Assembly (NCBI GenBank): GCA_035512695.1
Contig: DATKDL010000227.1
Coordinates: 6,941-70,940 of the forward strand
Length of the DNA stretch: 64,000 nucleotides
Origin: Anaerolineales bacterium
Lineage (GTDB): Bacteria > Chloroflexota > Anaerolineae > Anaerolineales > JABWBV01
Direction of reading: 5' to 3'
The position numbers and the translations under genes are program-made. The notes below the pieces were generated by a model, which was not told where the DNA came from, did no database searches, and saw only the letters and a program-made list of their open reading frames with translations. Positions 45,294-64,000 of the stretch are shown here, in pieces. Each line of letters begins with the position of its first letter. Within the stretch, counting starts at the first letter, position 1.

Positions 45294-45351
45294 CCGGCCT
45301 CAGAATTTTCGGGTGGGTTCTTCGTGATCCGTCGGATGGGTGTCAGAACCG

Positions 45352-47235
45352 TCATCGTTTTCCAAAATCTTGAGGCCTGGTGAATTCGGGTGTGGATGCA
45401 AGGGGCCGGGTGAAGACCAGGATCGCGGAGCCGGGCCGGCAGGGGTACGGCGCCGAGGTCTCTGCGGATAAAACCAGCCCGGCCGCCTCAACGGACGACC
45501 TGAGCGGATCCACAAAACCGGCCGACTCGACCAGGATGAAATCGGCCTCCCCTAGCCAGCGCTCGGACAGCGCCTCGCTCCATAGACCGAATTTTAGCAG
45601 GGCATCCGCATCGGGATGATCGAAAATGGTGTAATCACCATTGATCTGGGGCAGATAGAGGACCGGCTCGCGGAGGTACAGCAGCGGGGAGGCGGAATCG
45701 CCACCGCGCCAGTACACTGCATTGCCCGGTGGGATCAGGCCTGCCAGCTCGGCTCCGGTCTGTTCGAGGGCCGTCAGGGCGTCCTGGCCGCAATCGTAGG
45801 TGCGGTAGCCGTCCCCCAGGACGGCGGTCGGGGTGAGCAGGAGGCCGGCGGCCAGGAAAAGATGGAGCACGCCGGCGCCGATCCGATCGAGCCGGCTTCG
45901 TAAACCGGCCGCCAATCCGGCGACGGTCAGCCCGCCGATCAGCCCGGCAGCCGCCGGCAGGACCCGGCGGGTAGTGGTGTAGGCCAGCCCAAAGCGATGC
46001 TCGAGCACATCCCACAGCGGGAGCCCGGGCGCAGGATCGCCCGCCAGCCAGGAACGCAGGCGCGGGACCCGCAGCCGGGCCAGGCCATCGCCGATCCGGT
46101 CGTGGGCGCCAAGGCCGATCAGGATGGCGAAAAGGATGACCAAAACGGCCGCGGCCGCGCGCTGCCGGGTGGACCAGTCTCCGGTGATCGCCGGGAGTGA
46201 TGCGGCCAGCAGGTACAGACCCAGGGGGGCAAAGAAGGCGATGTAGACCGAAAAGCAGTAGACGCAGTAGGTCAATGCCAGCGATGCGGCCATGTGTTCG
46301 AACAAAAGCAAGGTGTAGAGCCCGGCTGCAAAGGCCAGGCTCCGCCGGTCGGCAGGTTCGCCCCCCCGGTGAGACAGAGAAAAGAGCGCCAGGACGAGCC
46401 CCATCACGGAGAGGAAATGCAGCCGCAGCCCCTCCAGGAAGCTGTAAAAACGGTTGGAGAAGGTCACCTGTGGGTCCCAGAACCGGGCCGCGGCCGGCTG
46501 CCGCCAGGGATCGAGGAACGGGGTCAGGGCATCCGGGAGCCAGTAGGCCCAGATCTTCAGGATGCCCGGCCAGAAAAATGCGTGGCCCAATGCAATCACC
46601 AGCACCCCGGCCCCCAGCGCCGACCAGCCCGCCCGCCGGCCGTGCACCCAGAAAATAAACGGCACGAGCAGGAAGAAGACCGGCGCCAGGTTCAGGCGCA
46701 CCAGCATCATTGAACCCGCCAGCGCGGCCGCGGCCGTCGTTCGCCACAGCGGGAGGGCGCCGCCCGAACGGTTGGGCAGGGCCAGGGCCAGGGTCCAGAT
46801 CAGCAGGCAGGCGATCAGCGCCTGGGAGGTCGCCAGGCTGTAGAAGCGGGCCGTGGCCGGGTTGATCGCCAGCAGCCAGACCGCCAGGGCCGCCCACCCG
46901 GGTGTGCAACGCTCCCTTACGAGGGTCCATAACCCCACGGCCAGCAGAAGGCCGACAGCCAGGATGAAATACCGCCCTTCCCGCAGCCCCGGCCCAAACA
47001 GCGCCTGGACGGCGCCGTGCACCAGGAACGAGAGCGGCATGTGGTTGGTCAGCGGGCCGTAATCCTGGAACGGTGCGTAATCCCCCCGGACAAACATCAG
47101 GCCCTTGATCAGATAGGCCCCTTCGTCCAGGACGGAGACCTGGGTGAGGGCGTAGTAGCGAGCATGGAGAAAAAATACCAGCGCCCCCGCTGCGGCGCAG
47201 ATTCCGGCCAGGTGCTTCTTCACGATCGGAATCAT
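45352..47235 (-). CDS. GT-C fold membrane glycosyltransferase-like protein, paralogue 2
   Basis: Colinear with 43361-45229 along its whole length (LDEGAY..PFQDYGPLTNHMPLSF..GPGL..GLWTL, and C-terminal YDCGQD...GAELAGLIPPG). Confidence 0.7.
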   Translation of the reverse strand: MIPIVKKHLAGICAAAGALVFFLHARYYALTQVSVLDEGAYLIKGLMFVRGDYAPFQDYGPLTNHMPLSFLVHGAVQALFGPGLREGRYFILAVGLLLAVGLWTLVRERCTPGWAALAVWLLAINPATARFYSLATSQALIACLLIWTLALALPNRSGGALPLWRTTAAAALAGSMMLVRLNLAPVFFLLVPFIFWVHGRRAGWSALGAGVLVIALGHAFFWPGILKIWAYWLPDALTPFLDPWRQPAAARFWDPQVTFSNRFYSFLEGLRLHFLSVMGLVLALFSLSHRGGEPADRRSLAFAAGLYTLLLFEHMAASLALTYCVYCFSVYIAFFAPLGLYLLAASLPAITGDWSTRQRAAAAVLVILFAILIGLGAHDRIGDGLARLRVPRLRSWLAGDPAPGLPLWDVLEHRFGLAYTTTRRVLPAAAGLIGGLTVAGLAAGLRSRLDRIGAGVLHLFLAAGLLLTPTAVLGDGYRTYDCGQDALTALEQTGAELAGLIPPGNAVYWRGGDSASPLLYLREPVLYLPQINGDYTIFDHPDADALLKFGLWSEALSERWLGEADFILVESAGFVDPLRSSVEAAGLVLSAETSAPYPCRPGSAILVFTRPLASTPEFTRPQDFGKR

Positions 47236-50676: not shown

Positions 50677-52769
50677 AATCCTTCAATCGATATTTAATCC
50701 CTTTCTCGGCGGTCCTGGCCGCTGCCTTCGCCCTGCTTATCGGTTTCCGGACGGCCCGGGCGATCCAGCCTCCTGGATTTTCATATGAGCCGGTCGCCTC
50801 CGGCCTCAACCTGCCGATCGACGCCGAGTTCATGCCGGACGGCGGCATCCTGGTCGCCGAAAAGGGCGCCGGCGCCGGCATCGACGGCCAGTCCGCCATC
50901 CGGCTCATTCGGGACGGTGAGGTCCAGGAAGTTCCGGTCCTGCTCCTGAGTACGTACACGTTTGGCGATTCCGGCATCCTGGGCCTGGTCCTGGACCCGG
51001 GCTTCGCCGGCAACGGCTATTTTTACGCCTGGTACGGCACCGGTCGGGATGCGCTGGGCTGGTCGGGCGTAACGGTCTATCGTCTCTCCCGTTTCACCTT
51101 CGATCCACTCACCGAGACGGCTGACCCGGCCAGCGAGCGGATTTTGATCGACGGCGTTCCGGCCGGCGATTATCACAACGGCGGTGGGCTGGTCTTCGAC
51201 GATGACGGTCTGCTCTACATCGCCACCGGCGACGCGAACGTCCCTGAACGGTCGCAGGACCTGACCGCCTGGAACGGTAAGATCCTGCGAATCTTGCCGA
51301 CGGAAACCGGGTATATCGTCCCAGGCGGGAACCCGTTCGTCGGCGATCCGAACATCCCGGACGAGATCTTCGCCTATGGCCTGCGGAATCCTTTCAGAAT
51401 TGCCGTCCGGGGCGCGAACGGTCAGGTCTATGCGGCCGATGTCGGCGAGATCAAGTGGGAGGAGGTCAACCTCGTCAGCGCCGGAGCGAACTTCGGCTGG
51501 CCGGTCCGGGAAGGCCCCTGCCCGATCGGGCAGGTCACGCCGTGCGAACCGGCGCCGCCGGGATACGTTGACCCGGTGCTCTACTACCGACACACGAGCC
51601 CTGCGATCGGTGCGGCCGTCTCCGCGGTCGCATTCTACGAAGGGACGATATTCCCCGAACCCTACCGGGGCAATCTCTTCTTCGCCGACATAAACCAGGG
51701 GTTCATCGCCCGTTCGGACCTGACCGGTCTGCCCGTCATCGACGGCGAGTTCGAGATCTTCGATCCCGCCGCCGGGTTCCTGGTCGACGCGGCGTACCGC
51801 CAGGGCGCCCTCTACTTTGTCGATATCGTTGCCGGAAAAATTATGAGGCTGGCGTACACTGGGGATTCCCCCCAGCCGTATGCCGTCCTCGCGGCCGACC
51901 CGCGGCTCGGACCGGCGCCGCTCGTCGTCTCCTTCAGCGCGGCCGGGAGCACGATCGTCCCCGGGACGACGCCGACCTATCATTGGGATTTCGGCGACGG
52001 CAGCGCACCGGGCCTGACTTCGACCCCCTCAACCGCCCACACCTATCCGGCCGACGGCAACTATCTCGCCACGCTGATGATCACCGATAACACCGGCGGG
52101 GGATCGAATACAGCCGAGGTTGGGATCACGGTCTATTCCGGCGAGCTGCCCGCCATTGAGCTCACCAATCTGACCGACCCCGAGAGAACGCTCTATCACG
52201 GCGGTGACGAGATCGAATACCGGGCCGTCCGATCCACGACCGCCGATCTGGATCCGGACACGCCGTTCACCTGGAAGATCGATCTGATGCACAATCAGCA
52301 TTTCCACCCGATCATCTCCGGTCACTCCGTCGTTTCCGGTACCCTCCAGATCGACTCCAGCGATCACGGCGGCAGCGTCAACCTCTGGTATCGCTTCACC
52401 CTGACGATGCTCACCGATACCGGGATCGCAGTGGAGATCTTCGAGGAGATCTTCCCAAAGATCGTGACCCATACCGTCACGACCACGCCTTTGGAGCCCG
52501 GAGTCACCCGCGTTTCGATCGGGAACGTCCCTCACTACGTCCCGCATGACTTCCTCACGATTGCCGGGACCGAGATCCATATCGCTGCGCCAGCCGTGAT
52601 CTTATTCGAGGACGGGGTCTACGATTTCGGCTCCTGGTCGCCTCAGCCCGGGTCCGAGCCGTTCATCCTGTTTGTCTCGCCGGAAGTCGAAACGGTGCTG
52701 AATGCGAGCTACGATTTCATCGGGCCGGTGTTAAAAGTGTGGATGCCCGTCCTGTTGGCGGATGGATAA
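50673..52769 (+). CDS. Secreted glucose/sorbosone dehydrogenase-like (PQQ-SGDH beta-propeller) protein with PKD domain and extra C-terminal domains
   Basis: Signal anchor. GILGLVLDPGF, YHNGGGLVFDDDG, YGLRNPFR, GANFGWP motifs of the SGDH family. PKD signature YHWDFGDGS...HTY..GNY. ATGA overlap with the upstream gene. Confidence 0.8.
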   Translation: MKSFNRYLIPFSAVLAAAFALLIGFRTARAIQPPGFSYEPVASGLNLPIDAEFMPDGGILVAEKGAGAGIDGQSAIRLIRDGEVQEVPVLLLSTYTFGDSGILGLVLDPGFAGNGYFYAWYGTGRDALGWSGVTVYRLSRFTFDPLTETADPASERILIDGVPAGDYHNGGGLVFDDDGLLYIATGDANVPERSQDLTAWNGKILRILPTETGYIVPGGNPFVGDPNIPDEIFAYGLRNPFRIAVRGANGQVYAADVGEIKWEEVNLVSAGANFGWPVREGPCPIGQVTPCEPAPPGYVDPVLYYRHTSPAIGAAVSAVAFYEGTIFPEPYRGNLFFADINQGFIARSDLTGLPVIDGEFEIFDPAAGFLVDAAYRQGALYFVDIVAGKIMRLAYTGDSPQPYAVLAADPRLGPAPLVVSFSAAGSTIVPGTTPTYHWDFGDGSAPGLTSTPSTAHTYPADGNYLATLMITDNTGGGSNTAEVGITVYSGELPAIELTNLTDPERTLYHGGDEIEYRAVRSTTADLDPDTPFTWKIDLMHNQHFHPIISGHSVVSGTLQIDSSDHGGSVNLWYRFTLTMLTDTGIAVEIFEEIFPKIVTHTVTTTPLEPGVTRVSIGNVPHYVPHDFLTIAGTEIHIAAPAVILFEDGVYDFGSWSPQPGSEPFILFVSPEVETVLNASYDFIGPVLKVWMPVLLADG

Positions 52770-54246
52770 CTTGAGGACCGATCCGAAAATTTGGGCATTC
52801 CTTTACGTCCTCGCGGTCACCGGGGGGCTGTTCTATTTCTTCAGGGGGTGGAGCTACGACGACCCCTATATCACCTACCGCTACGCCGCCAACCTGGCCG
52901 ATGGCTTCGGGTTCGTTTACAACCCCGGTGAGCGGGTCCTGAGTACGACCTCGCCGCTTCTGGCGCTGGCGCTGGCCGGGCTGCACCGGCTCGGCGCCGA
53001 CATCCCCGCCACGGCCAACCTGCTCGGCACCTTTAGCCTGGCCGTCGGCGGACTGCTGCAGTGGGAAATCGCCCGCCGCCTCGAACTCCCGGCGGCGGGT
53101 TGGGCCGGCCTTTTGCTGTACCCGACCACACCCCTGCTGGTCAGTACGCTCGGGTCGGAAACACCGATCTACCTGGCGCTCTGCCTGGGGGCAGTTTCTT
53201 TATATCTTCAAAAAAAATACGCCGCGGCCGGGGTCTTTCTGAGCCTGGCCGTCCTCAGCCGGGCGGACGCCCTGGTCCTGGGCGCGCTGCTCGCTGCGGA
53301 TTGGCTGATCCGGGCGTTCCGGACCACGCGTTCGCCGGCCGCCGTCATCCGGTCGGTGCCGCTGAAAACATTGATCGCCCCGGTCGCCGTCCTGCTGCCG
53401 TGGGTGCTGTTCGGTTGGCTGTATTTCGGGTCCCCGCTCCCGGCCACGCTGGCGGCCAAGCGGGCCCAGGGGTTGTTGAACCCGGCCGATCGTTTTCTCC
53501 CGGGTCTCTGGGATCTCGCCGGCCGCCTCGCGGAGTTTCCCCATTACTGGATCTATTTTGTCCTGATCCCGGCCGGTTTTCTGGTCGCCATTAAAAGGCC
53601 CGCCTGGTACCCGCTCCTGCTCTGGCCGGTCTGTTTCGCCGCGGGATATACCCTTCTCTCCGTGAATCGCTATCCCTGGTATTACGCCTCTCTCTTCCCG
53701 GGTGCGCTGGCCGGAGCGGGACTGGCGCTGGGGGCCTGGTTTCACGGGCCGGCGGGAGGCGCACCGGCTCGAACGGGGCTTTTCGCGGAATCGGTCCGGC
53801 GGCTCCGGACTGCCGGGCCGGTCTTGCTTCTTCTGCTCTTGTTTGCAGGGCAGCTCACGGACCTCAAACGGCTCCACGCCGGCTTTGACACACGATTTGC
53901 GATTTACCGGGAAATCGGTCTGTGGCTGGTGGAAAACACACCACCGGACGCTTCGATCGGCACGCTGGAGGTCGGAATCATCGGTTTTTTCGCCCGGCCC
54001 CGGCCGATGGTCGATTTCACCGGGCTGATCCAGCCGGACGTCGCCACGCAGTTCCGACCCGGATATGCCTATACCGATGCCGCAGCCTGGGCCGCCGAGC
54101 GCTACCAGCCGGACGTCCTCGTGCTGGCAGGCGGGTTTGGCGAACTGCGGCAAACGTACATGCGGGATCGCTGCCGGTCGGCGGCGGAATTCGCCGGCGC
54201 CGATTTCGGGTATGATCGGGACATCGTGATCTATGTCTGCGGTTAA
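52762..54246 (+). CDS. Polytopic membrane protein, GT-C-like (putative glycosyltransferase)
   Basis: First-loop WSYDDPYITYRYAANLADGFGFVYNPGERV (acidic DD motif), 10 or more TMs, and a soluble C-terminus. Overlaps the upstream stop by 8 nt. Confidence 0.6.
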   Translation: MDNLRTDPKIWAFLYVLAVTGGLFYFFRGWSYDDPYITYRYAANLADGFGFVYNPGERVLSTTSPLLALALAGLHRLGADIPATANLLGTFSLAVGGLLQWEIARRLELPAAGWAGLLLYPTTPLLVSTLGSETPIYLALCLGAVSLYLQKKYAAAGVFLSLAVLSRADALVLGALLAADWLIRAFRTTRSPAAVIRSVPLKTLIAPVAVLLPWVLFGWLYFGSPLPATLAAKRAQGLLNPADRFLPGLWDLAGRLAEFPHYWIYFVLIPAGFLVAIKRPAWYPLLLWPVCFAAGYTLLSVNRYPWYYASLFPGALAGAGLALGAWFHGPAGGAPARTGLFAESVRRLRTAGPVLLLLLLFAGQLTDLKRLHAGFDTRFAIYREIGLWLVENTPPDASIGTLEVGIIGFFARPRPMVDFTGLIQPDVATQFRPGYAYTDAAAWAAERYQPDVLVLAGGFGELRQTYMRDRCRSAAEFAGADFGYDRDIVIYVCG

Positions 54247-54440: not shown

Positions 54441-55001
54441 ATGGAATTTCTCCCGACCGCTATCCCTGACGTCGTCCTGATCCGGCCAAAAGTATTCGGC
54501 GATGCGCGCGGTTTCTTCATGGAGACCTTTCATGCGCGCCGCTTCGCCGAAGCCGGGATCACCGGCGATTTCGTCCAGGACAATCACTCCGGCTCGCACC
54601 GCGGCACCCTGCGCGGTCTGCACTACCAGATCCGGCAGGCCCAGGGCAAGCTGCTGCGCTGCCTCGCCGGGGAGATCTTCGACGTCGCCGTCGACATCCG
54701 CCGCGGCTCCCCCACCTTCGGGAAGTGGGTCGGGGTCACGCTCACGGCCGAGAACCGGCACATGGTCTGGGTCCCGCCCGGTTTTGCCCACGGTTTCTAC
54801 GTCCTGAGCGAGTGGGGCGAGCTGGCGTACAAGACCACCGATTACTACGCTCCGGAGTGGGAGCGCAGCCTCTCCTGGAACGACCCTGCGATCGGGATCG
54901 ACTGGCCGCTGATTCCGGGCGCCGAGCCCATCCTGTCCGACCGGGACAAGGCGGCGCCTCCGCTTGCGGAAGCGGAGATCTTCCCGGCTGACGGGGATTA
55001 A
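54441..55001 (+). CDS. rfbC: dTDP-4-dehydrorhamnose 3,5-epimerase
   Basis: IPDVVLIRPKVFGDARGFFMETF, LRGLHYQ, GFAHGF motifs. Confidence 0.95.
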   Translation: MEFLPTAIPDVVLIRPKVFGDARGFFMETFHARRFAEAGITGDFVQDNHSGSHRGTLRGLHYQIRQAQGKLLRCLAGEIFDVAVDIRRGSPTFGKWVGVTLTAENRHMVWVPPGFAHGFYVLSEWGELAYKTTDYYAPEWERSLSWNDPAIGIDWPLIPGAEPILSDRDKAAPPLAEAEIFPADGD

Positions 55002-55005
55002 ATCC

Positions 55006-56079
55006 ATGAAGAACCTTCTCGTCACCGGCGGGGCCGGTTTTATCGGCTCGAACTTCGTCCGCTACCTGCTGGGCAATGAGCCGGAGGTCCGGATCGTCAA
55101 TCTCGATGCCCTGACCTACGCCGGCAGCCCGGAGAACTTGCGCGACCTTCCGGATCCGGAGCGACATCAATTTATCCGGGGGGACATCAACGACCGGGTA
55201 CTGGTCGACCGGCTGCTGCGGGAATCGGCCGTCGACACGATCATCCATTTCGCGGCCGAGACCCACGTCGACCGGTCGATCCACCACCCCGAAGCCTTCG
55301 TCCGCGCCAACGTCCTGGGCACGTTCACCCTGCTCGAGGCGGTGCGGGTTTTCTGGCTCGTCGAACGGGCATTCCCGACCGCCGACGTCCTGTTCCATCA
55401 CGTCAGCACCGACGAAGTCTTCGGATCGCTGTCGCCGTCCGACCCGGCTTTTAACGAGACCACCCCGTACGACCCGCGTTCGCCCTATTCCGCCAGCAAG
55501 GCCGCATCGGATCACCTGGTCCGGGCCTACCACCACACCTACGGCCTCCCTATCACGATCACGAACTGCTCGAACAACTACGGCCCGCAGCAGTTCCCCG
55601 AAAAGCTGATCCCGCTGATGCTTCTCAACGCCCGGTCCGGCAGGCCGCTCCCGGTCTACGGCGACGGGCTGCAGATCCGGGACTGGTTGTACGTTGACGA
55701 TCACAGCGAGGCCATCCGCCGGGTGATCAAGAGCGGCCGCCGCGGCGAGACCTACTGTATCGGCGGAGACAACCAGCCCCCGAATATCGAGATCGTGCGC
55801 ACGCTCTGCCAGATCCTGGACGAGCTCGAGCCCGCCTCCCCGCACAGCCCGCACGAATCCCTGATCACCCACGTCGCCGACCGGCCCGGCCACGACCGCC
55901 GCTACGATATCGATATCGACAAAATCCGCTCGGAGCTGGGCTGGTCCCCCCAGGAATCGCTCGCCAGCGGCCTGCTCAAAACCGTGCGCTGGTATATCGA
56001 CCACCCGGAGTGGGTCGAGGCGATCCGGTCCAGCGAAGATTATGCGGAGTGGGTGGAGAGGAATTATGGGAAGAGATAG
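55006..56079 (+). CDS. rfbB: dTDP-glucose 4,6-dehydratase
   Basis: MKNLLVTGGAGFIGSNF, YSASKAASDHLVRAY, and DRPGHDRRY near the C-terminus. The track start 54964 is an extension. Confidence 0.95.
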   Translation: MKNLLVTGGAGFIGSNFVRYLLGNEPEVRIVNLDALTYAGSPENLRDLPDPERHQFIRGDINDRVLVDRLLRESAVDTIIHFAAETHVDRSIHHPEAFVRANVLGTFTLLEAVRVFWLVERAFPTADVLFHHVSTDEVFGSLSPSDPAFNETTPYDPRSPYSASKAASDHLVRAYHHTYGLPITITNCSNNYGPQQFPEKLIPLMLLNARSGRPLPVYGDGLQIRDWLYVDDHSEAIRRVIKSGRRGETYCIGGDNQPPNIEIVRTLCQILDELEPASPHSPHESLITHVADRPGHDRRYDIDIDKIRSELGWSPQESLASGLLKTVRWYIDHPEWVEAIRSSEDYAEWVERNYGKR

Positions 56080-56099
56080 TGCGAGGTACGAGGTGAAAC

Positions 56100-56140
56100 G
56101 TGCAATGTGCAAGGTGCAAAGTGCACCTTGCACATTGCAC
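56100..56140 (+). repeat. 19-bp perfect hairpin between rfbB and rfbA (no U-tract)
   Basis: GTGCAATGTGCAAGGTGCA, loop AAG, TGCACCTTGCACATTGCAC. Confidence 0.6.
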
Positions 56141-56160
56141 CTTGCAAATCCGAGGTTGCC

Positions 56161-57066
56161 TTGAAAGGAATTATTCTCGCCGGCGGTAAAGGCACCCGCC
56201 TATACCCGATCACGATCAGCGTCAGCAAGCAGCTCCAGCCGGTCTATGACAAGCCGATGGTGTACTACCCGCTTTCGATGCTGATGCTGGCCGGGATCCG
56301 TGAGATCCTCGTGATCAGCGATCCGGCCGGGCTGCCGCTGTTCAAAAGCCTGCTCCAGGACGGGTCGCAGTGGGGGCTGTCGTTCAATTATGCCGAGCAG
56401 GCGGAGCCGCGCGGGCTGGCGGACGCTTTCATCGTCGGGCGCGACTTTGTCGGTTCCGACACCGTAGCCCTGATCCTGGGCGACAACATATTCTACGGCC
56501 ACGGGCTTCCGGCCCAGCTGCGCCAGGCTGCCGAGATTGCGGACGGTGGGCTGATCTTCGCCTACCCGGTCCGCGACCCGCAGCGGTATGGCGTGATCGA
56601 GTTCGACGAGACCGGAATGGCGCTGAGCATCGAAGAGAAGCCGGAGCGGCCGCGATCGAGCTTCGCCGTTCCCGGCTTGTATTTCTACGACAACGAAGTC
56701 CTCGACATCGCCGCCAACCTCGCGCCTTCCGCTCGCGGGGAACTCGAGATCACGGACGTGAACCGGGTCTATCTCGCCCGGCAGAAACTGCGGGTCGAGG
56801 TCCTCGGCCGGGGAGTGGCATGGCTGGATGCGGGCACGCATGAGTCGCTGCTTGAATCTTCCCAGTTCGTTCACGCCCTCCAGGCCCGGCAGGGAATGAT
56901 GATCTCCTGTCCGGAGGAAATCGCTTACCAGATGGGCTACATTTCCACCGACCAGGTCCGTCGAATCGCCGAAGGGATGAAGGGGAACGAATACGGGCAA
57001 TACTTGATGCGCCTGATCGACGATCGCGGCGACAAGATCGCATCTCAAAACCGGACAGGGATATAA
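56161..57066 (+). CDS. rfbA: Glucose-1-phosphate thymidylyltransferase
   Basis: [25 protein letters not shown], and EITDVN motifs. TTG 56161 with GAGG 7 nt upstream. The track start 56107 lies inside the hairpin. Confidence 0.9.
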
Positions 57067-57091
57067 GAAGCTGGCGAACACCTGGAAACAT

Positions 57092-58846
57092 TTGAGCCGT
57101 CCGGCTCTGGATAAACTGGGGCTGCTTTCGCGACGGCAGGCCCTGGGCTGGGGGATGCTCGCCTGCGCGGCGCTGATCGGGCTGTGGACCATTCGTTGGG
57201 GCCTGTCCGACGTCGAAGGGGACGCCCTGGTCACCGGTTTCCACATGAGCAAAGGCAGGCTCCTGTACCGGGACATTTTTTCACATCATTTTCCCTTTAT
57301 CTATTTCTGGTCGACGGCTTCTGTCGCGCTGTTTGGAAAATCGCTCTACCTGCACCGCCTCACCGTCTGGCTTTTTCAGCTGGTCGTTTTCGGCGTCGTC
57401 ATGGTTTTGAGCAGGCAGGAACTCACGATCGGTATCACGAGCCTGATCTGGAGCATTCTGCGGCACCTGTACCTGAATAACATCCTCGTCTACCAGGCCT
57501 TCAGCGCACCCGCTGTGATAGGGATCGGCGCGCTGGTGCTGTACATCCTGCTCCAGCGCGATCAGACCGGGTTCCGCCATTACCTGGCGATCGGCCTGCT
57601 GGCCTCGGTCAGCGTGCTTTCGGACCCGCTCACGATCTACCCGGTCGGTGTTGCGCTGGTGCTGCTGTGGCTGCGGTCACCGCGTATCGGTTTTCAGACA
57701 TCCCTGGTCGCCGGCGCATGTGCGGTCCTGTTTCTCGGCTACCTGCTGCTGACCGGAGCACTCACCGATTTCCTTTCGGACGCCTTGCGTTTCAATTCGG
57801 AAATCTATGCCCGGTATAACAACAATTTCGCCTCGCCCTGGCGTTTCTCAAGATTTTCGGAACAGCTCCTCAGCGGGTTCGGGATCACGAACAGGCAGTT
57901 CCTCAACCTCGATCCTTTCCGGGAGATCACGACCCAGTACACGGATTTTGACCGCTGGCTGTTCACCGGTTTTCTCTACCGCATCGGCGCGCTTTCGGGC
58001 ATCCTGCTGTTCCTGGTCCGGAAGGAAACCTTCGCCGCCTTTTTCCTGTACACTTACTGCGCGGGCGCCCTGGCGATCGAGGTCTGGGGCCACCGCGCCG
58101 TGAATTTTGTCCCGCTGGCGCTGTTCATCGCGGCGGGGATGATTTCCCAGGAATGGTGGCCCGCCGAGGATGACCGCCGCCGGGCGATCGTCCGGAATGC
58201 CCTCACCTTCGCGATCGGATCGATGTTCGTATGGTTGGGGTTTCGGGTGATCGTCTTCACGCACGGCGGATTCGACGAGTATGCTTATATCAAACCGATC
58301 ATCGCATATCGGAACGAGGCCCGGGAACTGGTCGACCTCGCCTGCGGCCAGGACGGGGTGCAGCTCATCTTTTACCCGAACCGGATCTATCCCTATTTTT
58401 TTGCGGAGATGGAGGCGGTCGCAGGCTATTATTACATGTGGCCATGGGTGGCGGAAATTGCGCTTGACGAAGTCGTCGAGGCGTTGGAACGGCCTGGCGT
58501 GCTGGTCATCGCCCACCGGCAATTGAACGGATTGGTTTTCCAGCAATACGACACCCGGGAATACTTGAAACCGCTGGACGATTACTTGATGAACAACTAT
58601 ATCGCGGTCGATGACGGTCTTTATATCTCTCCGGCGCTGGCTGCCCGGTGCGCTGCGCAGGGCCATTCCAGCCCCCCTCTCAGGCAGATGCGCGACACGG
58701 GTACAGACGTCACGCAGCCGGGTGAAAATTTCTGGAAAAATGGGGTGCAGGCGGGGGCTTCGCCCCCGCCTGCACCCCATTTTTCCAGTATTCACGACGA
58801 CAGCCTGTGTACTTGCTGGGCGCAGATCAAAGTTGTGAGCGTATGA
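57092..58846 (+). CDS. Hypothetical polytopic membrane protein inserted between rfbA and rfbD (possible GT-C-like)
   Basis: About 11 TM helices and a soluble ~150-aa C-terminus. TTG start at 57092 (alternative ATG 57155). The last ~35 codons read through hairpin 58732-58788. Confidence 0.55.
   Translation: MSRPALDKLGLLSRRQALGWGMLACAALIGLWTIRWGLSDVEGDALVTGFHMSKGRLLYRDIFSHHFPFIYFWSTASVALFGKSLYLHRLTVWLFQLVVFGVVMVLSRQELTIGITSLIWSILRHLYLNNILVYQAFSAPAVIGIGALVLYILLQRDQTGFRHYLAIGLLASVSVLSDPLTIYPVGVALVLLWLRSPRIGFQTSLVAGACAVLFLGYLLLTGALTDFLSDALRFNSEIYARYNNNFASPWRFSRFSEQLLSGFGITNRQFLNLDPFREITTQYTDFDRWLFTGFLYRIGALSGILLFLVRKETFAAFFLYTYCAGALAIEVWGHRAVNFVPLALFIAAGMISQEWWPAEDDRRRAIVRNALTFAIGSMFVWLGFRVIVFTHGGFDEYAYIKPIIAYRNEARELVDLACGQDGVQLIFYPNRIYPYFFAEMEAVAGYYYMWPWVAEIALDEVVEALERPGVLVIAHRQLNGLVFQQYDTREYLKPLDDYLMNNYIAVDDGLYISPALAARCAAQGHSSPPLRQMRDTGTDVTQPGENFWKNGVQAGASPPPAPHFSSIHDDSLCTCWAQIKVVSV
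58732..58788 (+). repeat. 26/27-bp perfect hairpin inside the 3' end of the 57092 gene, upstream of rfbD
   Basis: CTGGAAAAATGGGGTGCAGGCGGGGGC TTC GCCCCCGCCTGCACCCCATTTTTCCAG. Confidence 0.7.
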
Positions 58847-59724
58847 AGATCCTCATCATCGGCAAAAACGGACAGCTGGGTTGGGAACTCGAGCGCTCGC
58901 TCGCCGTGCTTGGCGAGGTCGTCGCCGTTGCCCGGCCGGAGATCGATCTGTCGAACCCGGAGAGCACCGCCGGATGGGTCCGCCGCGTCGAGCCCGATGT
59001 CGTTGTGAACGCCGCCGCATACACGGATGTCGATGGAGCCGAGCGGGAAACAGGCGCGGCCCGGGCAGTAAACGCCCGCGCACCCGGGGTCCTGGCCGCC
59101 GAAACCGAACGGCTGGGGTCCGCCCTGATCCACTACTCGACCGATTTCGTCTTCGACGGCGAAAAACGCGAACCTTACCGCGAAACCGATCCGACCCGGC
59201 CGCTGGGAGTCTACGGACGCACCAAGCTGGAAGGCGAACAGGCGGTGGCTGCGGCCGGCGGGGCCGGTCTGATCTTCCGCACCGCCTGGGTTTACAGCCT
59301 GCGCCGGCCCAGCTTCGTCACCAGGGTGCTGGAATGGGCCCGCCGGTCCCCCGAACTGCGGATCGTGACCGACCAGACCGGCAGCCCGACCTGGTGCCGG
59401 ACGCTCGCCCAAGCGACCGCCCGGGTCATCGCCATGGGCGGCCCGGATCCGGCCGGGTTCCTGCGCGAGCGGCACGGCCTCTATCACGTGGCCTGCGATG
59501 GCGCCGCCAGCCGGGCCGAATGGGCCCGGGCGATCCTGCGCGGGGACCCGCACCCCGAGGAGCAGCTGGCGAAGGTCGTCATCCCCGCGTTGACCTCCGA
59601 TTTCCCGTCGCCGGCGATGCGCCCGGCTTATTCGGTCCTGGACTGCACCAAGTTCGCCGATGTCTTCGGCTTCCGGCTCCCGCCCTGGGAGGAAGCCCTG
59701 GGGCTGGCGATGGAGGCGGGATGA
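58843..59724 (+). CDS. rfbD: dTDP-4-dehydrorhamnose reductase
   Basis: MKILIIGKNGQLG, NAAAYTDVDGAE, STDFVFDG, and DQTGSPT motifs. Confidence 0.9.
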   Translation: MKILIIGKNGQLGWELERSLAVLGEVVAVARPEIDLSNPESTAGWVRRVEPDVVVNAAAYTDVDGAERETGAARAVNARAPGVLAAETERLGSALIHYSTDFVFDGEKREPYRETDPTRPLGVYGRTKLEGEQAVAAAGGAGLIFRTAWVYSLRRPSFVTRVLEWARRSPELRIVTDQTGSPTWCRTLAQATARVIAMGGPDPAGFLRERHGLYHVACDGAASRAEWARAILRGDPHPEEQLAKVVIPALTSDFPSPAMRPAYSVLDCTKFADVFGFRLPPWEEALGLAMEAG

Positions 59725-60833
59725 TCGCCAGGGACGAGTTGATCGTCGGGGACAGGTTGGTCGTCTCCGTGGTCGGCGCGCGGCCGAACTTCGTCAAGAT
59801 GGCGCCGGTCATTGCCGCGCTCGACCGGCGCGGCATCGCACAGGTCACGGTCCACACCGGGCAGCATTACGACGCACGCATGTCGGCCGTCTTCTTCGAT
59901 GAGCTCGGGATGCCCGAGCCGGGCATCTCCCTTGGCGTCGGCTCCGGGTCGCACGCCGAACAGACCGCACGGGTCATGCTGGCCTTCGAGCCTGTCCTGG
60001 TCGAGCACCGACCCGACCTCGTCGTCGTAGCCGGAGACGTCAACTCGACCCTGGCCTGCGCGCTGACCGCAACCAAGCTGGACATCCCCGTCGCCCATGT
60101 GGAATCAGGGCTGCGCTCCTTCGACCGGACGATGCCGGAAGAAGTCAACCGTATTCTGACCGACCACATCTCCGATCTGCTCTTTGTCACCGAGCCATCC
60201 GGCGCGGCCAACCTCCGGAAGGAGGGCATCGATCCGGACAAAATTCATTTCACCGGAAACACGATGATCGATTCGCTCGACCGGCACCTCCCGGCCGCCC
60301 TGGCCCGGGCACCCTGGGCCGCCTACGGCCTCGAGCCGGGCAGCTACGCCGTCCTGACCCTCCACCGGCCCGCCAACGTCGATGAGGAGACGAAGCTGCG
60401 CGAGCTGCTGGCGGCGGTCGCCGAGATCGGCGCACATACGCCGGTCCTGTTCCCGGCGCACCCGCGCACGCAAGAGCGGATGGATGGGTGGGGATTGGCC
60501 CAGGCGGGCGTCCGGCTGGTAGAGCCGCTGGGGTATCTGGATTTCCTGGGTCTGATGGCCCGCGCCCGCCTCGTCCTGACCGATTCCGGCGGGGTCCAGG
60601 AGGAGACGACGGCCCTCGGCGTGCCCTGCCTCACCATCCGGGACAACACCGAACGGCCCGTGACGATCGAGCAGGGCAGCAACCAGCTGGCCGGGACGAC
60701 CGGAGCCGGTCTGCTGGCGGCGTATGCCGGACTAAAAGCCGCCCCGGATCCGGCCCAGCGGCCGCACCTGTGGGACGGCCACGCCGCAGAGCGGATCGCG
60801 GACGTACTGACGGACTGGACGAGGGGCAGGTGA
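59721..60833 (+). CDS. wecB: UDP-N-acetylglucosamine 2-epimerase (non-hydrolysing)
   Basis: VVGARPNFVKMAPV, HTGQHYD, HVESGLRSFDRTMPEEVNR, and DSGGVQEE motifs. ATGA overlap with rfbD. The track ORF 58881-60833 is a same-frame extension. Confidence 0.9.
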   Translation: MIARDELIVGDRLVVSVVGARPNFVKMAPVIAALDRRGIAQVTVHTGQHYDARMSAVFFDELGMPEPGISLGVGSGSHAEQTARVMLAFEPVLVEHRPDLVVVAGDVNSTLACALTATKLDIPVAHVESGLRSFDRTMPEEVNRILTDHISDLLFVTEPSGAANLRKEGIDPDKIHFTGNTMIDSLDRHLPAALARAPWAAYGLEPGSYAVLTLHRPANVDEETKLRELLAAVAEIGAHTPVLFPAHPRTQERMDGWGLAQAGVRLVEPLGYLDFLGLMARARLVLTDSGGVQEETTALGVPCLTIRDNTERPVTIEQGSNQLAGTTGAGLLAAYAGLKAAPDPAQRPHLWDGHAAERIADVLTDWTRGR

Positions 60834-61777
60834 ACGCCGTACTCATCACCGGCGGGAACGGGTTTATCGGTTCGCATCTGGTCGATGCGCTGGCTGCGGC
60901 CGGCCGGCGGGTCGTCTCCTACGATCTTTACCCGCGCCCGTTTGAACCTCCCCCGGATAACGCCGTATTCATCCAGGGCAACCTGGACGACTCGGAGCTC
61001 GTCCGCCGGACGATCGTCGACGAAGGCGTCGAGGTCGTCGTCCACGCCGCCTGGGCGTCGATCCACGAAACATCGCTGAAGGACCCGGCTGCCGACGTCG
61101 AGGCCAACCTGGTCCCGACGCTGCGGCTGCTGGATGCCTGCCGGGAGGCCGGTGTGCGGCGCCTGGTCTTCCTGTCATCCGGCGGGCAGGTCTATGGAGT
61201 CCCGGAACGCAATCCCATCCGGGAGGATCACCCGGCGAACCCGATCAGCGCATACGGGGCGGCCAAGCTGGCGGCGGAGAAGTACGTCGGAATGTACGAA
61301 CGGTTGTACGGTTTGGAGAGCGTCATCCTGCGGCCCTCGGTGCCTTATGGGCCGCGCCAGAACCCGCGCCGCCGGCAAGGGGCGGCGGCCGTCTTCATCC
61401 ACCGGGCGCTCCACCGTCTCCCGGTCGAGATCTGGGGCGACGGAGAAGTGCAGCGAGATTACTTTTATATCGAAGACCTGAGCCGGGCTTTGGCTGCTGC
61501 GGTCGACTCGCCCGCTGCAGCCGGCGGCGTGTTCAACCTGGGCGGGCGAGAGACGATCTCGCTGAACGGCCTGGCCGCCGCCATCGAGCGGGCGCTGGAG
61601 CTGAAAATCGAGATCCAATATAAAGAAGCCCGCCGCTTTGACGTGCCGGCGCTGGCGCTGGATTGGTCGGCGGCGCAGCGGGTCCTGGGCTGGTCCCCCG
61701 AAGTCGAGCTGGAGGACGGGATCCGCCGAACGGCCGCCTGGCTGAAGAAATGGTTCGATGAACGAGATGGGAAGTGA
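60830..61777 (+). CDS. NAD-dependent epimerase/dehydratase (SDR, UDP-glucose 4-epimerase-like)
   Basis: VLITGGNGFIGSHLV and YGAAKLAAEKY catalytic motif. GTG 60830 overlaps the wecB TGA (GTGA). Confidence 0.85.
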   Translation: MNAVLITGGNGFIGSHLVDALAAAGRRVVSYDLYPRPFEPPPDNAVFIQGNLDDSELVRRTIVDEGVEVVVHAAWASIHETSLKDPAADVEANLVPTLRLLDACREAGVRRLVFLSSGGQVYGVPERNPIREDHPANPISAYGAAKLAAEKYVGMYERLYGLESVILRPSVPYGPRQNPRRRQGAAAVFIHRALHRLPVEIWGDGEVQRDYFYIEDLSRALAAAVDSPAAAGGVFNLGGRETISLNGLAAAIERALELKIEIQYKEARRFDVPALALDWSAAQRVLGWSPEVELEDGIRRTAAWLKKWFDERDGK

Positions 61778-61889
61778 CCTGGCCGCGGGGCTCGCCCGAG
61801 AGGACTTCACCGCCGTAACCGAGGCGCACACCGCCGGGCACCTCGGCAGCGGGGACGTGCGGGTGCTTGCCACACCGATGATGATCCTT
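61758..61889 (+). pseudogene. Truncated hotdog-fold thioesterase (first ~44 codons only)
   Basis: FTAVTEAHTAGHLGSGDVRVLATPMMIL matches the family N-terminus (VTxxxTAxxxGSGxxxVLATPxMIxLME). Similarity stops at about 61889, and the rest of track ORF 61758-62117 is antisense to the next gene. Confidence 0.5.
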
Positions 61890-61944
61890 AAATTCGGAGG
61901 ACGGGCGATATTGGCCGCGGTCTGGTCCGTCGAGATTGACTTCT

Positions 61945-64000
61945 TCACGCCTGCCAGACCGGATCAAAACCCGGGAGTTCGAACGTCCCGGCGGACGACT
62001 CGACCAGCAGGTACGGCAGCCAGGCCACCCCGAAAAGCTCGACCAGGATGTCCTTCTTGTAAGGTGCGACCGGGATCTCGTCGACGTGCTCGAGCGCTTC
62101 GCTCCAGTGCGACTTGATCGACGCGATCAGTTCGTCCAATTCCTGCCGGGTCTCGACGATCTCCTCCTGCAGCCGTTTGATCGTATCGAGCGACTCGTCG
62201 ACATCGGCCTTGGCCTGGGAGGTCATGCGGCGCTTCGACAGCGAGGTGGTCAGGGTTCGGCGGCGCTTGTTGAACAGGCTGAGCAGGTTCTCTGCATGCG
62301 TGCCGTATTCCTCCATCCTGCGCTGGGCGACCTCATCTTTATTCTCCTCGAGTTCCCGCTCCTCCCGTGATAGCTTGTCGGAGAGCGACTTTATCCGGGT
62401 CTCCAGCGTCCGCGTCTTTGTGGCCAGTTCCTTGTCGCGCAGCCTGGCGGCTTCCTCGGTCGACATCCGCCGGAACTCGGCCTCCGAGACATCCGGGCCG
62501 GCGTGGATCTTCAAAGTCGGGTTGGTGCGGACGGTGACGGTCCCGGCGCGGTAAATCCATTCGGAGAAATCCGTATCCAGTGATTTCATCAACCGCTCGT
62601 CGGTGAGCGGTGCGGTGAGTTCGCCGAAGGTGGACGTCGGAAGCGGACCCGGATCCAGCCCGCGCGGCTCGATCCGGGCGCAGAGATGTTCCTCCCAGCG
62701 GACGATCCCGCGGGCATCCGGTTCGACGACGACGCCGGTCCAGGTCTTTTCCATATTCAGGTTGTAGGTCCGATTGACGAAGCGGACGTTGGCCTGCGCC
62801 AGCAGGACGGGGCGGTAGATCAGACCGGCGCTCCGTGCATCCGCGGGCAGCTCCCTTCCGGCCTTCCTGGCGGAATCGCCGAGGGTCAGTTTGTGCGGGA
62901 GGAAGAATTCGTTGACGCGGGCGGGGAGGGCGGGTTTCGTGGAAGTGCCGGGTGCCGGGTGCCTGGTGCCTGGTGATGTTTCGGCCGGTTTAGATGGTCG
63001 GTCATGGGAGGCGGTCGGGGCGTCCGACACGGACGCTGGTTGTGCGGTCACCTGGAAAAGCGCGGAACCCGGATGGGGGCCGGCTGGTTGATCCGTGGAC
63101 GAGGTCCAACCAAGATCCGATGTACCTATCCTTCCCGTCCTTGTCCCGACTCCGGCCAGAACGTTGAGGGCCGGGATCTGGGTCCGGGTGAGCGGGCCGG
63201 CCATGTAGTTCATCGCCCAACGGGTCTGGAAGATGTGGGGCTGTTTTTCGTGGACATTGTGAAGCAGGAACCGGCGTTTCCCCAAACCGGAGATCAGGCG
63301 CTCAACGGTCCCCCGGTCGAGCGAGCCGGCGGCCGCGCCCTGCAGGCCGTCGAGCAGCCGCTGCTTGTCGCGATCGGCCTGGAGACGACCGATGAACCAG
63401 GTGCCGGCATTGGTCAGCGCCTTGTAGTCCAGATCGGCCGGGTTCTGGGTGACGAGCAGCATCGCGACCCCGAAGGCCCGGGCCTGTTTGAGCAGCCGCA
63501 GCATGGGCGGCTTGGAGGGCGGGTTGGCGGTCGGCGGAAGGTAGCCGAAGATCTCGTCAAAATAGACGATCGCCCGCAGCGATGAGGTCCCGCTCTGGCC
63601 GCGCATCCAGCTTTCGACGGCGCTGTAAAGCAAGGTGATGAAGAACATCCGCTCCGCATCGGTCAGGTGGGCCACGTAGAATACGCTGTGGCGCGGTCTG
63701 CCGTCCTGGGTGTACAACAGGGTCTGAATATCGAGCGGGGCGCCCGAGGTCCAGACCTGGAAAGTCGGGGCGGCCAGGATGTTATTCAGCAGCATGGCCA
63801 GGTTGAACCGGTCCCCATCCGGGAAGAAGCGGCCGACCTCAAAGACACCTAGCTTGTCAAACGGCGGGGTCTGGACCTGCAGGATCAGCTCCCCCATGTC
63901 CAGGTCGGCGCCGCGGCTCCAGGCGTGCTCGAAAATATTGGCGAGCAGGATATGCTCGCGCGAGCGCAGCGGGTCGATGTCCTGCAGCCCGACTAGCCCG
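61945..64000 (-). CDS. HerA/DUF853-like P-loop NTPase with long C-terminal linker and coiled coil (5' end outside window)
   Basis: AIVYFDEIFGYLPP (Walker B-like hhhhDE) and AFGVAMLLVTQNPADLDYKALTNAGTWFIGRLQ resemble the HerA/YjgR-type core. The reading frame stays open upstream of Met 63897 to the window edge (…GLQDIDPLRSREHILLANIFEHAW…). The C-terminal ~180 aa are heptad-rich (RLRDKELATKTRTLETRIKSLSDKLSREERELEENKDE...). Confidence 0.7.
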   Translation of the reverse strand, partial: GLVGLQDIDPLRSREHILLANIFEHAWSRGADLDMGELILQVQTPPFDKLGVFEVGRFFPDGDRFNLAMLLNNILAAPTFQVWTSGAPLDIQTLLYTQDGRPRHSVFYVAHLTDAERMFFITLLYSAVESWMRGQSGTSSLRAIVYFDEIFGYLPPTANPPSKPPMLRLLKQARAFGVAMLLVTQNPADLDYKALTNAGTWFIGRLQADRDKQRLLDGLQGAAAGSLDRGTVERLISGLGKRRFLLHNVHEKQPHIFQTRWAMNYMAGPLTRTQIPALNVLAGVGTRTGRIGTSDLGWTSSTDQPAGPHPGSALFQVTAQPASVSDAPTASHDRPSKPAETSPGTRHPAPGTSTKPALPARVNEFFLPHKLTLGDSARKAGRELPADARSAGLIYRPVLLAQANVRFVNRTYNLNMEKTWTGVVVEPDARGIVRWEEHLCARIEPRGLDPGPLPTSTFGELTAPLTDERLMKSLDTDFSEWIYRAGTVTVRTNPTLKIHAGPDVSEAEFRRMSTEEAARLRDKELATKTRTLETRIKSLSDKLSREERELEENKDEVAQRRMEEYGTHAENLLSLFNKRRRTLTTSLSKRRMTSQAKADVDESLDTIKRLQEEIVETRQELDELIASIKSHWSEALEHVDEIPVAPYKKDILVELFGVAWLPYLLVESSAGTFELPGFDPVWQA

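Follow-up and report, generated by a model that had tools for sequence, protein, structure and literature searches.

A conserved Anaerolineae ATPase of the FtsK-HerA superfamily with a previously undescribed coiled-coil C-terminal module

The window analysed here (the whole stretch of 64,000 nucleotides) was found to end inside a gene for a HerA/FtsK-superfamily ATPase, of which the 3' 2,055 nt (residues 179-862 and the stop codon) lie at 61945-64000 on the minus strand. The frame is open from its stop codon at 61945-61947 up to base 63999, a run of 684 codons. The exact full-length database protein is HUF39920.1 (NCBI; 862 aa, 100% identical, from a 72,921-bp contig of an Anaerolineales MAG), which carries the title "DUF87 domain-containing protein". 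Residues 179-862 of this protein are encoded inside the window and residues 1-178 outside it. The original prediction, made from the letters of the window, had described a reading frame running off the edge with its Walker A motif beyond position 64000; the frame is real, and Walker A (GMTGSGKTG) was located at residues 35-43 of the full-length protein, outside the window. Anaerolineae, the class to which the source belongs, are abundant, mostly uncultured filamentous bacteria.

Of the ATPase domain, the window shows residues 179-449 (63187-63999, minus strand), which comprise a helical insert and the Walker B/sensor half of the ASCE core. The expected hhhhDE Walker B is present as the strand RAIVYFDE (63553-63576), and the expected VTQNPxDLD as VTQNPADLD, following the sensor strand at 63427-63453; D326 and E327 of the former and Q363, N364, P365, D367 and D369 of the latter are invariant in the alignment of homologues. 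Downstream on the same strand are a disordered A/P/S/T/G-rich linker (residues 450-535; 62929-63186), the beta-rich first half of a C-terminal module (residues 536-683; 62485-62928), an antiparallel coiled-coil hairpin (helices 684-754 and 765-815; 62089-62484) and a set of C-terminal beta strands (residues 816-862; 61948-62088). The layout first proposed, namely a HerA-type core followed by a disordered linker, a beta domain and a coiled coil, thus agrees with the profiles and the structural models.

The ATPase gene is met head-on by a plus-strand cluster of dTDP-rhamnose/envelope-sugar genes (54441-61777), the last of which encodes a NAD-dependent sugar epimerase (60830-61777, by Pfam); about 25 kb of envelope-glycan genes flank the ATPase gene within the window. 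The epimerase product was found exactly on an independent 6-kb Logan contig, which ends at window position 61931. An ORF at 61175-61948 on the minus strand, overlapping the ATPase stop codon, was rejected as a shadow of the epimerase gene. The same convergent layout was observed in contigs L084, L166 and L168. The rhamnose/envelope-sugar flank is collinear in relatives about 81% identical; over both gene and flank, the window also aligns collinearly to the sister-lineage contigs L166 and L168, with a nucleotide identity of about 80%.

The epimerase and ATPase genes are separated by a spacer of 167 bp (61778-61944), about 145 bp of which is extra when compared with the sister-lineage contigs, the spacer being 32-34 bp in L084 and L166. 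It overlaps a weak FlK-thioesterase-like N-terminal fragment on the plus strand (61764-61898; Pfam FlK, E = 0.04), and searches of the spacer for terminator-like sites, tRNAs and flanking repeats found none. An assembly chimera at 61.89 kb was rejected, since the convergent layout recurs in four contigs, which come from three sister-lineage metagenome samples and one ENA assembly. What had been read as a junction at 61.89 kb is therefore this spacer between convergent genes, with its thioesterase-like fragment, and not an island boundary.

The affinities of the ATPase domain (residues 1 to about 449 in the AlphaFold2 model) were assessed by profile searches. Pfam DUF87 (PF01935, the HerA central domain) matched with 37.1 bits, above its cut-off of 23.2, with only residues 9-72 aligned; this part is the Walker A region and lies outside the window. 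FtsK_SpoIIIE also matched (24.9 bits against a cut-off of 24) in the Walker A region only, as did TrwB at Walker A. HerA_C (PF05872, DUF853/YjgR) fell short of its cut-off of 22, with 21.3 bits, and aligned to 42 residues only (21-62 of the 502 profile positions). The description of the protein as HerA/DUF853-like thus holds for its HerA/FtsK-type core and fails for the DUF853/YjgR assignment. The best full-domain HMM match was PADLOC mad8 (E = 7e-15, residues 9-391), with the PADLOC HerA models matching partially. A sequence search of the PDB gave 8wiv (HerA) as the best match (3e-7 to 2e-8), in the Walker B half.

Structural comparison was consistent with these matches. A full-length AlphaFold2 model (monomer) was built on 41 homologues, and when it was compared with the PDB using Foldseek, 137 chains were retrieved at E <= 1e-3. 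The top 50 listed were HerA, DndH C-domain, VirB4 and TdpAB chains, all with a probability of 1.0. HerA matches included 8wld, 4d2i and 7wrw, and the highest target-normalised TM-scores were those of the DndH C-domain (7es4, 0.68) and VirB4 (4ag5, 0.66); E for the HerA, DndH and VirB4 matches was in the range of 1e-9 to 1e-11. Walker A, Walker B followed by a polar sensor, and a fold like that of solved members place the protein among the cytoplasmic ASCE P-loop motors of the FtsK-HerA superfamily. No membrane segment was found, the best 19-residue hydropathy window scoring 1.47 and falling inside a predicted beta hairpin. Nor does the model contain an N-terminal HAS barrel, as only short strands (8-13 and 19-22) precede Walker A; with the latter at residues 35-43, the protein starts directly with the P-loop domain.

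Conservation of the ATPase domain is high, with a mean majority-residue frequency of 0.85 across the 41 homologues; the mean column identity of the alignment is 69%. The active site is invariant in Walker A (G35-T42), in Walker B (D326/E327) and in the sensor (Q363/N364), and the protein is therefore taken to be an active NTPase. Residues K341, R346, K349 and R352 form a further invariant cluster.

The linker was predicted to be disordered, with pLDDT below 50 at residues 453-525, and has a composition of 20% A, 16% P, 10% S and 9% T. It is poorly conserved among homologues (43-81 aa; majority-residue frequency 0.35). The P/S/T/A-rich linker of some 90 aa in the original prediction is thus confirmed, at about 85 aa. 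The beta-rich region that follows (pLDDT 85-93) includes a long beta hairpin and one helix. A coiled coil is present as predicted, although not at the proposed length of about 180 aa: the hairpin (pLDDT about 90) spans about 130 aa, with helices of 71 and 51 residues, from which the length of the arm is estimated at about 10 nm. Its tip, NKRRRTLTTSLSKRRMT (62221-62271), is basic, Ser/Thr-rich and conserved, residues S764, L765, K767, R768 and R769 being invariant in the alignment, and pLDDT is locally low at residues 757-763. The short C-terminal cap anticipated at the end of the protein exists as a terminal region of beta strands (818-822, 829-846 and 849-854), in which K826, K827, D828, F834, G835, W838 and P840 are invariant. 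As the hairpin returns the chain to the beta-rich half, these strands probably pack against that middle beta domain.

No match to the C-terminal 327 aa was found in Pfam, in the PDB (Foldseek and profile) or in BFVD (Foldseek). The profile search of the middle and C-terminal domains that had been proposed at the outset was run against the PDB and returned non-significant coiled-coil matches only. A separate model of the C-terminal part (mean pLDDT 86) likewise had fold matches only to generic coiled coils (SMC, HlyD and Wzc), all at E >= 0.02 and non-significant, the best being the Wzc co-polymerase at E = 0.02. The module was found only at the C-terminus of proteins of ~820-930 aa, those named being from Anaerolineae. 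The literature yielded nothing relevant on the HUF39920.1 family or on a HerA-PLD pairing, and the coiled-coil C-terminal module is previously undescribed.

The family is large: clustered at 90% identity, its full-length orthologues fall into at least 8000 clusters, and relatives occur in at least 528 GTDB species-representative genomes and on 475 metagenome contigs. No cultured Anaerolineae isolate was among the best 120 hits of either of two protein searches. Among the 80 loci listed, the named taxa are all Anaerolineae/Chloroflexota with the exception of one 5-kb contig binned as Zixiibacteriota, and one further locus is labelled "uncultured bacterium". Full-length pairwise identity has a minimum of 55% and a median of 64%; genome and metagenome scans gave no copy closer to HUF39920.1 than 83% identity. 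On a similarity dendrogram of the protein itself, loci of one synteny class group in contiguous blocks. These comparisons suggest a chromosomal, single-copy gene conserved across the class Anaerolineae, apparently by vertical descent, its breadth being counted from the carriers found. The patchy distribution expected of an accessory gene was not seen; instead, the number of clusters and species representatives and a synteny that follows the protein tree point to vertical conservation.

Rings of the HerA/FtsK type are mostly encountered as motors of defence, repair, conjugation or division. The gene had been put forward as the edge of an accessory system on inserted DNA. Its composition (GC 0.641, GC3 0.82) is that of the window, which has a mean GC of 0.642. 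No match to the ATPase protein was found in phage records, and plasmid records gave a single weak match to the ATPase part only. About 150 neighbourhoods contained no relaxase, T4SS or integrase gene. In the closest lineage (81-83% identity) the upstream gene encodes a riboswitch-controlled secreted Ig-like surface protein, not a defence or conjugation function. The proposal is therefore unsupported by conservation, composition, collinearity or the phage and plasmid searches, and on these comparisons the ATPase gene is judged neither to be cargo of an inserted element nor to mark the border of a mobile island for defence or transfer. Finding a HerA-like gene beside a wobble in composition where a window ends is no evidence of a defence island.

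The most frequent neighbour of the relatives is a gene for an exported, tandem Nuc-like PLD protein, which occurs about twice as often as any other. Among the 62 loci whose flanks each extend for at least 4 kb, it was found within 4 kb of the ATPase gene in 51, on the same strand in every case: adjacent upstream in 31, upstream with an intervening gene in 10 and downstream in 10. The PLD chain is about 367 aa with two PLDc_2 domains (Pfam). All of the 52 PLD proteins compared have two HKD motifs, and 40 of them have a strong N-terminal hydrophobic or lipobox segment. Its nearest solved relatives are Nuc (1byr, 3e-18), Zucchini (2e-17) and NucT (4e-7), with which it shares the HKD phosphodiesterase fold. 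However, two HKD domains are joined in one chain of the linked PLD, whereas Nuc-type enzymes are homodimers of single-HKD chains of about 160 aa. Nuc and NucT are exported, as the linked PLD is predicted to be. Scores of the PLD lie far under the NCBIfam equivalog cut-offs, and the PADLOC models DrmC, MkoB and DpdK match it partially.

No PLD gene is present anywhere in the 64-kb window, and none is adjacent to the ATPase gene in the closest lineage (81-83% identity). The PLD is predicted to lie outside the membrane and the ATPase inside, so that a direct complex of the two is unlikely, and synteny by inheritance could account for part of the linkage. The association is a statistical one and points to a common process handling nucleic acid on both sides of the membrane. 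Recurrent neighbours in about 150 loci were the PLD gene and genes for YgjP-like, ATC hydrolase and PEMT proteins, and LPG_synthase_TM, PMT_2-like and GSDH genes are often near the ATPase gene of relatives. Neither PADLOC nor Pfam had a match for the remaining recurrent neighbours, namely a 150-aa protein and zinc-ribbon membrane proteins. No NurA, Sir2 or DUF4297 partner was among the recurrent neighbours of the approximately 150 loci, and no recurrent defence or secretion-system genes were seen beside relatives.

When compared with known systems, the protein shares with HerA the ASCE P-loop fold with Walker A, hhhhDE Walker B and sensor (Foldseek E 3e-11), at an identity of only about 14%. 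However, HerA has the N-terminal HAS barrel that HUF39920.1 lacks and is without the 410 aa of linker and coiled-coil module. The HerA systems (archaeal and bacterial HerA-NurA, and anti-phage HerA-Sir2 and HerA-DUF4297) have cognate partners, none of which recurs beside HUF39920.1 relatives in the approximately 150 loci, and are patchy, unlike this family, which is conserved in one lineage. YjgR/DUF853 (PDB 11kk) is a stand-alone bacterial HerA-clade ATPase that also starts with the P-loop (residues 24-71 align to its 22-69), but which is about 500 aa long and has neither linker nor coiled-coil module. YjgR sits in a chromosomal, non-island context. The DndH C-domain, the VirB4 C-domain and MADS mad8 are short FtsK-HerA ATPases without a HAS barrel, at about 14% identity; they are parts of restriction, T4SS or defence systems with other partners, and none has the C-terminal module. 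FtsK/SpoIIIE belong to the same motor superfamily and share the logic of a ring motor, a long low-complexity linker and a separate localising domain. Their domain order, however, is the reverse of that in HUF39920.1, which has no membrane domain and in which Pfam and PDB searches found no FtsK-type domain C-terminal to the motor.

With moderate confidence, the gene is regarded as a lineage-core, vertically kept Anaerolineae gene for an FtsK-HerA motor, probably DNA-translocating, and not as inserted cargo. By analogy with solved relatives about 14% identical, the motor may form a ring, probably a hexamer, and ATP would power the passage of a polymer, DNA most likely, along its central pore. 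The flexible low-complexity linker of 45-85 aa would tether this motor to the family-specific C-terminal module, whose beta platform is predicted to project the two-helix coiled-coil arm, ending in an invariant tip rich in Arg/Lys and Ser/Thr. The arm may serve in targeting or assembly by binding a partner or an anionic surface, either nucleic acid or membrane. Such an arrangement would be FtsK-like, with a linker-tethered motor and a localising domain in reversed order, and the linked exported tandem-HKD PLD, with its signal peptide or lipobox, would place it in a common nucleic-acid process spanning the membrane. A known engine is here fused to a 327-aa module without detectable relative, under strong constraint in Anaerolineae, and its pairing in most cases with an exported Nuc-like nuclease would mark an unstudied lineage-specific core function. 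Should that function be to import DNA or to handle it at the septum, it would close a gap in the account of how Anaerolineae exchange or partition DNA.

An alternative to which we give an outside chance is DNA uptake or trans-envelope processing, in which the PLD would cut DNA outside the cell and the HerA ring would pull it through a ComEC-type channel in a ComFA-like role. NucT and Gram-positive membrane nucleases take part in natural transformation, and the linked PLD is an exported nuclease of the Nuc/NucT type; however, an exported nuclease could just scavenge extracellular DNA as a nutrient. In 9 of 55 loci, and also in locus L001, a ComEC gene is found no more than 10 kb away, with eight of the nine co-oriented, but this linkage is weak (16%), with unrelated genes in between, and the window contains no ComEC gene. 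The DNA-import ATPases CedD and CedB were the highest-ranked NCBIfam models, although at about 30 bits against cut-offs of 600-700, which indicates shared P-loop motifs only, and the ATPase has no membrane-interaction domain. The full version of this scheme, a trans-envelope DNA module, most plausibly for uptake, of exported PLD and ring motor, with the arm tip docking at the membrane or ComEC and the whole replacing ComFA-type motors, is considered just as doubtful.

A motor tied to the envelope and not acting on DNA, for instance an ATPase for assembly or secretion resembling VirB4, or one that partners polysaccharide or lipid machinery, is considered unlikely. The envelope-glycan flank in the window and the LPG_synthase_TM, PMT_2-like and GSDH genes near relatives would suit such a role, as would the place of VirB4 among the best structural matches and of Wzc as top C-terminal fold match. 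However, the envelope genes converge on the ATPase gene, are not co-oriented with it and vary between lineages, while the C-terminal fold matches fall short of significance and neither a membrane anchor nor recurrent secretion-system neighbours were found in the protein and the loci compared.

It is very improbable that the pair is an anti-phage engine widespread in Anaerolineae, with a HerA-type ATPase and a PLD nuclease effector comparable to HerA-Sir2 or HerA-DUF4297. The two genes are always co-oriented and PADLOC models match both products (HerA and mad8 the ATPase; DrmC, MkoB and DpdK the PLD), but every such match is partial and at the level of domains, and the predicted export of the PLD would put it out of reach of intracellular phage DNA. 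In addition, the high conservation (median identity 64%; 0.85 in the ATPase domain), the single syntenic locus, the empty phage search with one weak ATPase-only plasmid match, and neighbourhoods without recurrent defence genes run directly counter to what defence islands show, namely patchiness and fast evolution.

Weak matches to TrwB, TraD, IcmO and FtsK in the Walker A region would suit a VirD4/TraD/FtsK-type coupling protein or translocase belonging to a conjugative or integrative element. This reading is close to refuted, given that HUF39920.1 has no N-terminal membrane segment, that relaxase, T4SS and integrase genes are absent from the approximately 150 neighbourhoods, that plasmid records gave just one weak ATPase-only match, and that the gene occupies a conserved chromosomal locus. 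At locus L082, one copy lies within a closed chromosome of 6.36 Mb.

The minus-strand gene at the window edge runs open for 684 codons, from its stop codon (61945–61947) to the final complete codon inside the window. Its G+C content by codon position (0.63, 0.47, and 0.82) follows the pattern of the other confident genes of the window, and its overall G+C content of 0.641, with a GC3 of 0.82, matches the window mean of 0.642. Database searching identified the full-length product as HUF39920.1 (P0001), a protein of 862 amino acids encoded on a 72,921-bp contig and 100% identical to the visible ORF, with only residues 1–178 lying beyond base 64000. The Walker A motif (GMTGSGKTG, residues 35–43) was found within this unseen portion, as had been expected. 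The HerA-type motifs reported in the original prediction were also present, with the Walker B motif (RAIVYFDE) at 63553–63576 and the sensor motif (VTQNPADLD) at 63427–63453, both on the minus strand.

The visible part alone had no significant Pfam match and matched only the HerA models of PADLOC, across the Walker B half. The full-length protein scored 37.1 bits against Pfam DUF87 (cut-off 23.2), over the Walker A region only, while its top full-domain HMM match was PADLOC mad8 (7e-15, residues 9–391). Structural matches were to HerA, the DndH C-domain, VirB4, and TdpAB (E-values of 1e-9 to 1e-11, ~14% identity), and sequence searches of the PDB gave weak matches to the same families. On the basis of these HMM, Pfam, PDB sequence, and structural matches the protein is a member of the FtsK-HerA superfamily. 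The DUF853-like/YjgR label previously given to it was not upheld, as the score of the full-length protein against DUF853/HerA_C (21.3 bits) falls below the 22-bit threshold, and the protein is not YjgR. Nor is it HerA in the strict sense; the ATPase domain has no HAS barrel in the AlphaFold2 model.

This model, built on 41 full-length homologues, had a mean pLDDT of 79, and a separate model of the C-terminal 327 amino acids alone had a mean of 86. The ATPase domain (residues 1 to ~449) opens directly with the P-loop strand and is followed by a disordered linker (453–525), a beta-rich region (536–683), a coiled-coil hairpin of two long antiparallel helices (684–754 and 765–815) and terminal beta strands (816–856). 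The domain outline proposed earlier was thus correct, and a coiled coil is indeed present, although it is a hairpin of ~130 rather than ~180 amino acids; the region described as a C-terminal cap exists and consists of beta strands, which the hairpin probably returns to the beta domain in the predicted fold. Among homologues the catalytic residues are invariant, as is a basic cluster directly after the Walker B strand (K341, R346, K349, and R352). The linker is A/P/S/T/G-rich, varies from 43 to 81 amino acids and is poorly conserved (majority-residue frequency of 0.35 vs. 0.85 for the ATPase). The loop between the two helices carries a near-invariant basic, Ser/Thr-rich motif (G-R-R-R-R-L-S-T-S-L-S-K-R-R-M-T). 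The C-terminal module had no match in Pfam, nothing below E = 0.1 in profile searches of the PDB and only non-significant coiled-coil matches by Foldseek against the PDB and BFVD, and is undescribed as far as these libraries go.

Database searches returned at least 8000 clusters of full-length relatives with 55–73% identity. A scan limited to six exact 8-residue patterns placed relatives in at least 528 GTDB species-representative genomes and at least 475 metagenome contigs. The named taxa among the 80 genome loci listed are Anaerolineae/Chloroflexota, with the exception of one 5-kb contig binned as Zixiibacteriota; one further locus is labelled "uncultured bacterium". One copy (L082) sits in a closed 6.36-Mb chromosome. 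When a profile of the C-terminal module was searched against 1.84 billion representatives, it was found only C-terminally in proteins of ~820–930 amino acids, or in fragments, and the named carriers were Anaerolineae. The homologue alignment had a mean column identity of 69%, and pairwise identity among 146 orthologues had a minimum of 55% and a median of 64%. No match was present among 50,697 phage records, and 72,556 plasmids yielded a single weak one, to the ATPase domain only.

The gene is convergent with a 7.3-kb plus-strand cluster in which Pfam identified rmlC, rmlB, rmlA, rmlD, a UDP-GlcNAc 2-epimerase gene and an NAD-dependent epimerase gene, and beyond which lie genes for glycosyltransferases, a GDP-mannose dehydratase, a PMT_2-like protein and LPG_synthase_TM. 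Sister-lineage contigs (ATPase 81–83% identical) have exactly the same convergent layout, one being collinear with the window at ~80% nucleotide identity through the gene and the adjoining flank. Searches of the boundary for tRNAs, flanking repeats, terminator-like sites and Rfam elements found none. The original prediction, citing a junction at 61.89 kb, had called the gene the best candidate edge of an undescribed accessory system on inserted DNA. What lies there is a convergent spacer of 167 bp between the epimerase and ATPase genes, of which ~145 bp are missing in the sister lineage (spacer of only 32–34 bp), with a weak FlK fragment; it reads as a small scar and not an island edge. Distribution, sequence constraint, synteny, near-absence from mobile elements and the collinear flank are all contrary to an accessory or inserted element. 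Relatives occur lineage-wide rather than patchily. Their pattern appears vertical, loci sharing a gene order forming contiguous blocks on the ATPase dendrogram.

Within the spacer region, a short plus-strand ORF (61764–61898) overlaps the epimerase stop codon and is probably a gene remnant. Its start (…HTAGHLGSGDVRVLATPMMI…) resembles the N-terminus of an FlK/hotdog thioesterase (Pfam FlK, E = 0.04, weak), a likeness that fades at ~61890. Assembly breaks recur at both ends of the ATPase gene. An independent assembly (L165, Logan contig SRR8556377_273705) matches the window exactly along the aligned 61740–61931 and ends at 61931, 14 bp short of the stop codon, and three sister-lineage contigs (L084, L166, and L167) all start 75–88 bp upstream of the start codon, beside a T7–T11 homopolymer.

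Neighboring genes were counted in 151 unique related loci, 62 of which extend for 4 kb or more to either side. A gene for a phospholipase-D-family (PLD) protein of ~367 amino acids was found within 4 kb in 51 of these 62, always on the same strand: directly upstream in 31, upstream past an unrelated gene in 10 and downstream in 10, in the last case with a gene for a 150-aa protein in between. Every other neighbor was less than half as frequent. The loci with the downstream arrangement all cluster on the dendrogram, their named taxa being Ardenticatenaceae and Candidatus Leptofilum. The PLD product carries two PLDc_2 domains, two HKD motifs (52 of 52) and a hydrophobic segment at the N-terminus that often includes a lipobox. 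Among solved structures it is closest to the nucleases Nuc (3e-18), Zucchini, and NucT rather than to cardiolipin synthases. From these features it is most likely a tandem Nuc-like phosphodiesterase that is exported and tethered to the membrane. A YgjP-like metallopeptidase gene directly follows the ATPase gene in 16 of 62 loci, and ComEC occurs no more than 10 kb away in 9 of 55. In ~10 related loci (L003:6406–8782 and equivalents), the PLD gene is preceded by two or three overlapping genes whose uncharacterized products have zinc ribbons at the N-terminus. These products are of two types, one of ~350–400 amino acids with C-terminal membrane segments and one of ~180, neither with Pfam or PADLOC matches; in one sub-lineage these genes may make up a 4–5-gene operon with those for the PLD protein and the ATPase. 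None of the PLD, YgjP-like, zinc-ribbon or ComEC genes is present in the 64-kb window. In the closest lineage no partner gene adjoins the ATPase gene. The gene immediately upstream there follows a c-di-GMP-I-GGC riboswitch (RF03167; L168:64–154, plus strand, 74 bits, E = 4e-17), and its secreted product of 465 amino acids combines a Thr/Pro-rich region with an Ig-like (Big_1) domain.

The protein is a cytoplasmic FtsK-HerA-type ATPase joined by a flexible linker to a conserved beta platform and a coiled-coil arm with a basic tip, of a family conserved lineage-wide and linked to the gene for the putatively exported Nuc-like enzyme. By analogy with all characterized relatives, it would form a ring that moves a polymer at the expense of ATP, DNA being the likeliest substrate. 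The K341/R346/K349/R352 cluster would fit a pore or DNA contact, and the architecture suggests that an anionic surface or a partner may be where the arm places or assembles the motor. This scheme of motor, linker, and localizer is similar to that of FtsK, with the order reversed. Trans-envelope DNA handling (uptake or processing) by the motor and the PLD nuclease is the most attractive specific idea because one partner is an intracellular motor and the other a putatively extracellular nuclease, but it is improbable as matters stand; roles in defence, envelope secretion, or conjugation are each less likely still. As to the conserved, PLD-linked motor family, the gene itself is not new, since the family is deposited as "DUF87 domain-containing protein". 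Its class-wide conservation, its C-terminal module without detectable relative and its association with a gene for an exported tandem Nuc-like PLD protein all appear to be undescribed in the literature.

Further observations concern the envelope-glycan cluster. Four large ORFs (40341–42332, 43361–45355, 45352–47235, and 52762–54246; 663, 664, 627, and 494 amino acids, respectively) have coding-like GC3 and no Pfam match at E ≤ 1e-5. Between rmlA and rmlD, a 1.84-kb segment (57003–58842) has no counterpart in sister-lineage contig L166, which is otherwise collinear, and has a G+C content of 0.59, below the 0.61–0.70 of its neighbors. It carries a plus-strand ORF (57092–58846) for a 584-aa product with at least six hydrophobic segments and no Pfam match, and a gene for an envelope membrane protein seems to have been inserted here into the rhamnose operon in a lineage-specific event. 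At the right end of this segment, within the final 115 nt of the ORF and just upstream of rmlD, lies a perfect inverted repeat of 27 bp with a loop of 3 nt (CTGGAAAAATGGGGTGCAGGCGGGGGC and its complement, 58732–58788), which could be a terminator, an attenuator or an insertion-associated hairpin.
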